This document shows positions 4,466 through 5,090 of a DNA stretch of 16,070 nt, piece by piece. Every line of letters starts with the position of its first letter. Position 1 is the first letter of the stretch. The stretch lies in the IMG/VR virus record IMGVR_UViG_2713896787_000017, one strand, 5' to 3'. The position numbers and the translations under genes are program-made. This DNA comes from a virus. Taxonomy: Duplodnaviria > Heunggongvirae > Uroviricota > Caudoviricetes. The notes under the pieces were generated by a model. That model was not told the DNA's origin, made no database searches, and worked only from the letters and a program-made list of their open reading frames with translations.

Positions 4466-5088
4466 GGCACGGGCTGCTGGCGCTGATTTGCTGGCTGTGT
4501 TGTGTTGTTGCCCATAGCGAAATGCTGAATGTCGAACAATCCGGGCTGTTTCGCGCCTGGTTTGTACGCATTGCACAAGAACAGCTCCGCCAGGGGCCAA
4601 GTCCACGCTGGTATCAGCAGGATTGTGCGGGCCTGGTGCGATTTGCGGCGAACGAGACGCTGAAAGTTCACGATAGTAAATGGCTAAAAAGTAACGGTTT
4701 CTCTAGCCAGTATTTGCCGCCAGAGATGACGCTAACACCTGGACAGCGTCAACTGGCGCAAAACTGGAATCAGGGGAACGGGAAAACCGGCCCCTACGTG
4801 ACCGCGATTAATTTGATTCAGTACAACAGCCAGTTTATTGGCCAGGACATAAACCAGGCGCTGCCTGGCGATATGATTTTTTTCGATCAGGGCGATGCCC
4901 AGCACTTAATGGTCTGGATGGGGCGTTACGTCATCTACCACACCGGAAGCGCCACGAAAACTGACAACGGAATGCGCGCAGTCAGTCTGCAACAACTTAT
5001 GACATGGAAGTTGTATATTAAAAATTTCATTAATTATCAATATGTTAATGTGCGCTGGTCATTATTAATCAAAATAAAACCATTATGA
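4462..5088 (+). CDS. yfaT: YfaT-like protein (DUF1175 assignment from memory); last ~25 codons are encoded by prophage attL DNA
   Basis: ATG at 4462 overlaps the yfaA stop (ATGA), giving 208 aa. Synteny gyrA-yfaA-yfaT as in K-12. The 3' end beyond ~5010 is AT-rich and aligns with the lambda P' arm, so the C-terminus is reconstituted by phage sequence. Confidence 0.7.
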
Positions 5089-5090
5089 TA
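4993..5090. other. Prophage attL: core CAACTT-ATGACATGG-AAGTTG (4993-5013) plus lambda-like P' arm (5014-5090)
   Basis: 6+9+6 inverted-repeat core with the same geometry as lambda CAGCTT-TTTTATACT-AAGTTG. The 81 nt between the core and the conserved TTTCAATTTTGTCCCACTCCC block align without gaps to the lambda P' arm as I recall it (GGTCATTATTAATCAAAATAAAACCATTAT here vs GGTCACTATCAGTCAAAATAAAATCATTAT in lambda). Directly abuts the int stop. Confidence 0.6.

Follow-up and report, generated by a model that had tools for sequence, protein, structure and literature searches.

Introduction

Phages HK022 and lambda are the closest described relatives of the integration module studied here. Their attP cores read ATCCTTT-AGGTGAA-TAAGTTG in HK022 and CAGCTTT-TTTATAC-TAAGTTG in lambda, and the bacterial core that HK022 enters, in the torS-torT intergenic region, reads GCACTTT-AGGTGAA-AAAGGTT. 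Dorgai, Yagil and Weisberg are said to have found in 1995 that integrase positions 99, 282, 283, 287 and 319 discriminate lambda from HK022 core recognition. Phages of the lambda family also use secondary sites, at low frequency. A different arrangement is known from phage 21 and e14 in icd, where the phage carries a surrogate 3' end of the gene and the gene is preserved.

In one study of HK022 Int (PMC7736782), attB is given as a 21-bp site of 7+7+7 design, the 7-bp overlap is said to be possibly arbitrary provided that attP and attB match, and the B and B' sites are said to be reducible to 5 bp. The P' arm of HK022 contains a mapped, outward-reading promoter which drives torS; the same work also covers the HK022 site and its influence on torS (PMC6814406). 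As for the locus considered below, yfaT appears in the list of core genes disrupted by prophages given by Bobay et al. 2013 (PMC3603311), and among the islands in the supplement of Mageeney et al. 2020 are ones of 14 and 50 kb that occupy the DUF1175 gene and received an inactivating score (PMC7192596).

Here we analyse a stretch of 16,070 nucleotides from a tailed virus (IMG/VR record IMGVR_UViG_2713896787_000017), referred to as the window, for which an initial annotation had proposed a lambda-like attL inside the 3' end of yfaT. We conclude with high confidence that positions 4993-5094 are the attL of a lambda-like prophage whose integration module is of the HK022 type, formed by exchange across TGACATG.

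Results

Host identity, attR and the empty site

The window contains, in order, gyrA (1-2628), yfaA, yfaT (from 4462) and then the prophage, which begins with a convergent int followed by xis, both on the minus strand. It matches the chromosome of E. coli E2863 (NZ_AP018802) apart from two runs of N, the first difference between the two being the first of these runs. Each run consists of exactly 50 N (7089-7138 and 10841-10890); the first is flanked on both sides by the 14-mer caattacacggctc and resembles either masked sequence or a gap introduced when overlapping contigs were scaffolded.

The checks of the integration site that the initial annotation had proposed include alignment to a prophage-free genome, in which yfaT identity running past about 5013 would have spoken against the proposal, and a search for a matching attR beyond position 16070. 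When 4435-5700 was compared by megablast with 5,426 complete E. coli genomes, the prophage-free genomes (about 5,200) matched only as far as position 5010, and 176 genomes aligned across the junction. In comparison with strain RM10042, whose site is empty, attL is identical through ...ATGACATGGAAG and unrelated beyond it, so that the break falls where it had been predicted. The matching attR lies 16,919 bp further downstream on the E2863 chromosome; it has TGACATGGAAG in common with attL, reads ...CTCCTTCTGACATGGAAG|GACACCCG..., and is followed by the displaced 75-nt tail of yfaT and then by yfaS.

The attB core lies 75 nt before the end of yfaT, the precise empty attB being CAACTTATGACATGGAAGGAC. 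Joining the left side of attL to the right side of attR rebuilds the empty yfaT site with 0 mismatches in 800, both in E2863 and in O111:H- 11128. An overlap identical in attP and attB and an exact reconstitution of attB, as found here, are what marks an attL of the lambda/HK022 type. Because the break at 5010, the attR and the exact rebuild of the empty site agree, we regard the integration site as resolved: the attL call is sound, and the junction is the ordinary left junction of a lambda/HK022-type prophage in the end of yfaT. Entry had been placed within the last 30 or so codons of the gene, which is right as to the 3' end and can now be given exactly, since phage DNA takes the place of 24 native codons and the stop.

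Precise junctions are seen in both alleles, with the empty attB intact in 5,201 of the 5,426 complete genomes, the attL junction in 177 and attR in 180.

The attL core

The junction, in the order B-O-P', occupies 4993-5094 and comprises the core and the P' arm, placing the prophage within the 3' end of yfaT. The sequence CAACTT-ATGACATGG-AAGTTG is found exactly at 4993-5013, as the initial annotation had it, although the 6+9+6 palindrome that it described is canonically parsed as 7+7+7 (CAACTTA/TGACATG/GAAGTTG). Perfect 6+9+6 inverted repeats of any sequence occur five times in the window outside the runs of N, against 3.9 expected, which is the chance level, whereas CAACTT-N9-AAGTTG with at most one mismatch occurs once, against 0.06 expected from shuffles. 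Generic repeats of this geometry are thus not rare, and it is the specific core-type hexamers, not the geometry alone, which carry weight. The reading as a chance palindrome was rejected.

The register of the core was set by the gap-free alignment of the P' arm to lambda and HK022, and the cleavage positions and overlap boundaries given here are those predicted from homology to these two phages. The B core-type Int site CAACTTA (4993-4999), assigned by position relative to the 7+7+7 core of lambda and HK022, is bacterial DNA, identical in the prophage-free RM10042. It is followed by the 7-bp overlap O, TGACATG (5000-5006), the presumed site of strand exchange, and by the C' core-type Int site GAAGTTG (5007-5013), which is phage-derived from 5011 on and corresponds to TAAGTTG in HK022 and lambda and to GAAGGAC in attB. 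The attL core therefore consists of 21 bp in which two inverted 7-bp core-type Int sites surround a 7-bp overlap.

The overlap lies wholly inside the 11-bp sequence TGACATGGAAG (5000-5010), which is the same in attL, attR, attB and attP, as judged by a three-way comparison and by the contiguous attP copies described below; this common stretch grows to 15 bp (4996-5010) if one mismatch is allowed. The left edge of the overlap, position 5000, is the first base common to attP and attB, position 4999 being A in attB and attL and C in attP and attR. The palindrome is a hybrid of a bacterial B site on the left and a phage C' site on the right: the left CAACTT is bacterial, and the phage's own C site is CTCCTTC. 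The yfaT cores read CTCCTTC-TGACATG-GAAGTTG in attP and CAACTTA-TGACATG-GAAGGAC in attB, and the pattern nnnCTTn-N7-nAAGnnn is common to all five cores compared (lambda attP, attP and attB of HK022, and attP and attB of yfaT).

The P' and P arms

The P' arm of attL extends from 5011 to 5094. Gap-free alignment of its 81 nt from 5014 to 5094 with the lambda P' arm, as the initial annotation had described, gives 54/81 identical positions, well above the maximum of 40 reached in 20,000 composition-matched shuffles (mean 25.6, sd 3.9). The HK022 P' arm, also aligned without gaps, is closer (64/81), and so is the HK022 integrase (98% identity, against 76% to lambda Int), and we have accordingly replaced lambda by HK022 as the nearest relative. 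Homologues of the known sites stand at the lambda/HK022 offsets from the overlap. An IHF H' site, TATCAATATGTTA (5035-5047), is predicted by position and fits the IHF consensus WATCAANNNNTTR, and positional homologues of the lambda/HK022 arm-type Int sites follow as P'1, TGGTCATTAT (5056-5065), P'2, TAATCAAAAT (5066-5075), and P'3, AAACCATTAT (5077-5086). The arm thus has an H' site and three tandem arm-type sites at fixed distances.

The P arm, at attR, has homologues of P1 and P2 and a sib/tI hairpin. This hairpin, GCGCAAG...CTTGCGC, lies on the attR side outside the window (37304-37331 of locus L002) and is conserved with sib/tI of lambda and HK022; as in lambda, it is split from int in the prophage state. 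A promoter and terminator scan of 4800-5300 returned one minus-strand promoter-like site in P', not above chance. It is the only sigma-70-like hexamer pair of the arm (5062-5033, minus strand) and points outward to yfaT, antisense to the gene.

Contiguous copies of attP

In strain 150 the 21-bp core of the window recurs in an uninterrupted P-core-P' arrangement between nleA and a decayed int. Such a contiguous attP (P arm, CTCCTTCTGACATGGAAGTTG, P' arm) can be seen at 1230-1640 of locus L006 (NZ_CP028592), immediately downstream of nleA and upstream of the decayed int, and others at loci L010-L018 and L020-L022. The contiguous attP beside nleA is present in 455 genomes, and among the matches listed the top ones are O157:H7 or O157:H7-like. 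A 20-mer of the attP core occurs in 13 IMG/VR contigs, 12 of which are relics of the form nleA-attP-decayed int, and four of these relic contigs agree with the window prophage over P arm and core at 100% identity. The thirteenth contig (IMGVR_UViG_3300031877_000333, locus L019, 10876-10895) is an unrelated metagenomic viral contig with the exact 20-mer and no arm homology, and its match is probably due to chance.

Every contiguous attP copy found adjoins a decayed int, which is N-terminally truncated and riddled with stops. The relic Int shows 77-80% protein identity (82-84% by tblastn local alignment), with A283 and R287 where the window Int has K283 and K287; it keeps D99, P282 and R319, which places it in the HK022 clade. 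Among 50,697 phage records we found no free phage with a yfaT attP, the only attP regions recovered being HK022-type (78-80%) and lambda-type (74%); all int matches in these records start at window position 5008, beyond the overlap on its right side. In IMG/VR, a 27-mer taken from the reconstructed attP had no exact match. The position of the relics suggests that nleA moved as cargo together with an attP module of yfaT type, and that a different prophage subsequently took it in.

The integrase and excisionase

The int gene (5083-6153, minus strand) encodes a 356-aa HK022-type heterobivalent tyrosine integrase with the Pfam domains Arm-DNA-bind_1, Phage_int_SAM_1 and Phage_integrase, and its stop codon abuts that of the hybrid yfaT. 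The adjacent xis (6131-6349, minus strand) encodes an annotated excisionase of 72 aa with a full-length match to Pfam Exc (E-value 3.6e-41) and overlaps the start of int, as in lambda and HK022. A heterobivalent integrase with an arm-binding N-domain and an excisionase therefore adjoin the core. The catalytic residues R212, K235, H308, R311, H333 and Y342 are all conserved, and at the five specificity positions the window Int has D99, P282, K283, K287 and R319, as does HK022, where lambda has N, S, G, R and E. The HK022 attB is not the site used here, as both core and locus differ; HK022 specificity residues together with another core and locus point to an HK022-like way of working with a separate att specificity.

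The initial annotation had attributed the different central 9 bp to substitutions in the core-binding region of Int, an explanation which is not supported. The Int of the Stx1a phage NIID112183 is identical to the window Int at 355 of 356 positions, differing only at the C-terminal end, and yet this phage has torS on its left flank and the attL GCACTTA-AGGTGAA-TAAGTTG, which is the HK022 site. Essentially one enzyme is thus found with two cores at two loci, and the different centre reflects a different attP core and not Int substitutions. The latitude in the overlap described for HK022 Int (PMC7736782) agrees with this.

At the nucleotide level, identity to NIID112183 is 64-93% over 5000-5178 and 100% from about 5179 to about 6160, and the complete identity to the right of the breakpoint runs through xis. 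The mosaic breakpoint is sharp and lies at about 5120-5179 of the window, inside the 3' end of int. It implies that an att region of yfaT type and an int-xis block of torS type were brought together by a recent recombination. Divergence from HK022 is centred on the core, from roughly -110 to +120.

A third core was noticed beside mdtA, where an HK022-clade int at 1480-1600 of locus L007 (NZ_CP189657) has the junction ...AAATAAGGTAAGTTG. This Int differs from the window Int at 12 amino acid positions, and the locus is, on this comparison, an apparent further case of one enzyme family with a new overlap.

Given the mosaic boundary, the present int could be a post-integration acquisition: an ancestral, yfaT-specific Int resembling the decayed relic copies, since replaced, would have made the junction, and the HK022/Stx1a-type int-xis, recombined in later, may not act on this core. 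The step in identity to NIID112183 at 5179 and the divergence of the relic Int, with A283/R287 in place of K283/K287, are both compatible with such a history. However, the relic Int is itself a member of the HK022 clade, and the yfaT core sites retain the CTT/AAG positions used by HK022 Int. This enzyme is moreover described as accepting arbitrary overlaps and shortened B/B' sites (PMC7736782). Forms of the prophage measuring 14, 15, 17 and 49 kb also combine this attL with one and the same Int protein, WP_000533670.1. We therefore consider a replaced integrase unlikely and retain the reading in which an HK022-type Int made the junction.

The hybrid yfaT

The yfaT frame of the window (4462-5088, plus strand) encodes 208 aa, of which residues 1-183 are native and 184-208 are encoded by the phage P' arm, ending at the TGA at 5086-5088; RefSeq annotates it as a DUF1175 protein (WP_001215757.1). 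The last codon common to the native and hybrid genes is that of K183 (5008-5010). Native YfaT has 207 aa, and its last 24 residues are displaced by 25 phage-coded ones. The peptide earlier given for the fused frame is the exact translation of this ORF, and it is literally true, for these 25 codons, that the phage arm supplies the C-terminus of YfaT. What it supplies is not a YfaT tail: the new residues are unrelated to the native ones, with a best local alignment score of 19 over 9 residues, and the Pfam DUF1175 match, which covers profile positions 20-225 of 226 in the native protein (196 bits), shortens in the hybrid to 20-202 (153 bits). With an unrelated tail and a truncated domain match, yfaT is altered and not restored, and the phage segment has no homology to the displaced end such as gene-restoring integration would show. 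The hybrid tail is a by-product of the yfaT frame running through the AT-rich P' arm as far as a TGA. The prophage also separates yfaA-yfaT from yfaS-yfaQ.

That the hybrid is nearly of native length, in frame and annotated as DUF1175 could be taken to mean that the phage brings a functional surrogate for the yfaT 3' end and that YfaT is active in lysogens. We consider this very improbable in view of the unrelated tails and of a DUF1175 match that loses 43 bits and ends at 202/226. In addition, the frame stops after 8 codons in the O157 relic P' variant beside the same core, as read by eye, and TIGER scored the DUF1175 gene as inactivated (PMC7192596). Integration that restores the gene was accordingly rejected in favour of one that truncates it.

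A secondary-site or illegitimate insertion of an HK022-site phage (overlap AGGTGAA) into a yfaT pseudo-attB, which the near identity of Int to that of the torS-torT phages might suggest, is effectively refuted by the contiguous attP copies, which bear exactly the yfaT core, and is further opposed by the lack of usable identity between TGACATG and AGGTGAA, by phage-derived bases that differ from HK022 (C' GAAGTTG against TAAGTTG, C CTCCTTC against ATCCTTT) and by the recurrence of the junction in 177-180 genomes.

The element and its distribution

Strains carrying both attL and attR include O111:H- 11128, bovine, swine and other isolates are also occupied, and O26:H11 11368 and an O103 strain are present among the genomes with attR. 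The remnants measure 14.3 to 16.9 kb, the island of O111:H- 11128 being 14.3 kb long; they are without immunity, replication and structural genes and keep int, xis, Q, lysis genes, nleG and nleA. A near-complete, lambda-like prophage of 49 kb lies between the same attL/attR pair in CAU16175, with the same Int and hybrid YfaT proteins as the window. The occupied sites may all go back to a single ancient insertion or to very few.

Two adjacent minus-strand ORFs of the prophage, 7706-8533 (275 aa) and 8572-9558 (328 aa), gave no Pfam or PADLOC match, and three hypothetical ORFs of the prophage, scanned with both, gave nothing. The region of 7706-9558 is a single ORF of 590 aa (1,773 nt) in PE164 and CAU16175, so that the pair in the window may be a split pseudogene of a prophage cargo gene. 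In AUSMDU00014361 (NZ_CP045827.1), attL (1,563,264) and attR (3,723,138) lie on opposite strands about 2.16 Mb apart, which points to the inversion of a large part of the chromosome, with one endpoint inside the yfaT prophage.

Discussion

In the mechanism that we propose, Int bound to arm-type and core-type sites, with IHF assisting at H', would swap strands across the identical TGACATG of attP and attB. The junctions show P'-int-xis beside the body of yfaT, and the P arm, with the nleA and nleG cargo, beside the yfaT tail and yfaS. The yfaT frame reads on through 25 unrelated codons, with loss of the conserved C-terminal part of DUF1175. The target would differ from the torS-torT site of HK022 through the attP core and overlap and not through the enzyme. 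In the 16.9-kb deletion remnant int, xis, attL and attR are all still intact, so that the element should be able to excise, provided that Int and Xis are expressed.

Of the systems described, HK022 is the most similar, in Int (98% identity), the five specificity residues, xis, the 7+7+7 geometry, a C' site one base apart, and homologous P and P' arms with arm-type and IHF sites in register. It differs in the overlap (AGGTGAA against TGACATG), in the C, B and B' sites, and in its target, which is the torS-torT intergenic region and not the 3' end of a coding gene; furthermore, about 200 bp centred on the core are only 47-90% identical, whereas int is about 96-100% identical. Lambda shares the overall architecture, with 54/81 in P', the H' and P'1-3 sites, an int stop inside P' and the sib/tI hairpin on the P side, but its Int is 76% identical and lacks the HK022-type specificity residues, and its overlap and C site differ. 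The resemblance to phage 21 and e14 in icd is that the 3' end of a protein-coding gene is entered and phage DNA completes the ORF; at yfaT, however, the new tail is non-homologous to the displaced one and the domain is truncated. The yfaT locus is also the one listed among the TIGER candidates for 'regulated gene integrity' (e.g. mlrA, tqsA, yfaT), and the island of O111:H- 11128 fits the 14-kb TIGER island in size.

Since the yfaT site is already in the literature, the junction confirms textbook biology and reveals nothing new in itself: it is a canonical attL of the lambda/HK022 family at a documented, already known integration site. What is added here is the core at base level, the anatomy of the arms and the identity of the module as HK022-type, together with the observation that it is the att core, not the integrase, which differs from the torS-torT phages. 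An exact boundary is fixed for the nleA/nleG prophage remnant common in EHEC of the O111, O26 and O103 types and in bovine E. coli, and the annotated 208-aa 'DUF1175 protein' is recognised as a bacterial-phage hybrid with a truncated domain. The sequences can be used for excision-PCR primers and offer a naturally occurring attP/attB pair that is orthogonal to the one from HK022 employed in CRIM-type tools. Beyond correct annotation, the importance of the finding is small.

The locus is a natural example of the textbook rule that in the lambda/HK022 family the address is set by the attP core and not by the enzyme. A broader reading, which we put forward tentatively and with somewhat more doubt than conviction, is that an unchanged HK022-type Int was naturally retargeted to yfaT purely by the exchange of an attP core cassette of about 200 bp. 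Lambdoid phages would then switch sites by core swaps and not by Int evolution, and co-resident HK022-type prophages could excise or mobilise the nleA/nleG remnant in trans, reversibly restoring yfaT.
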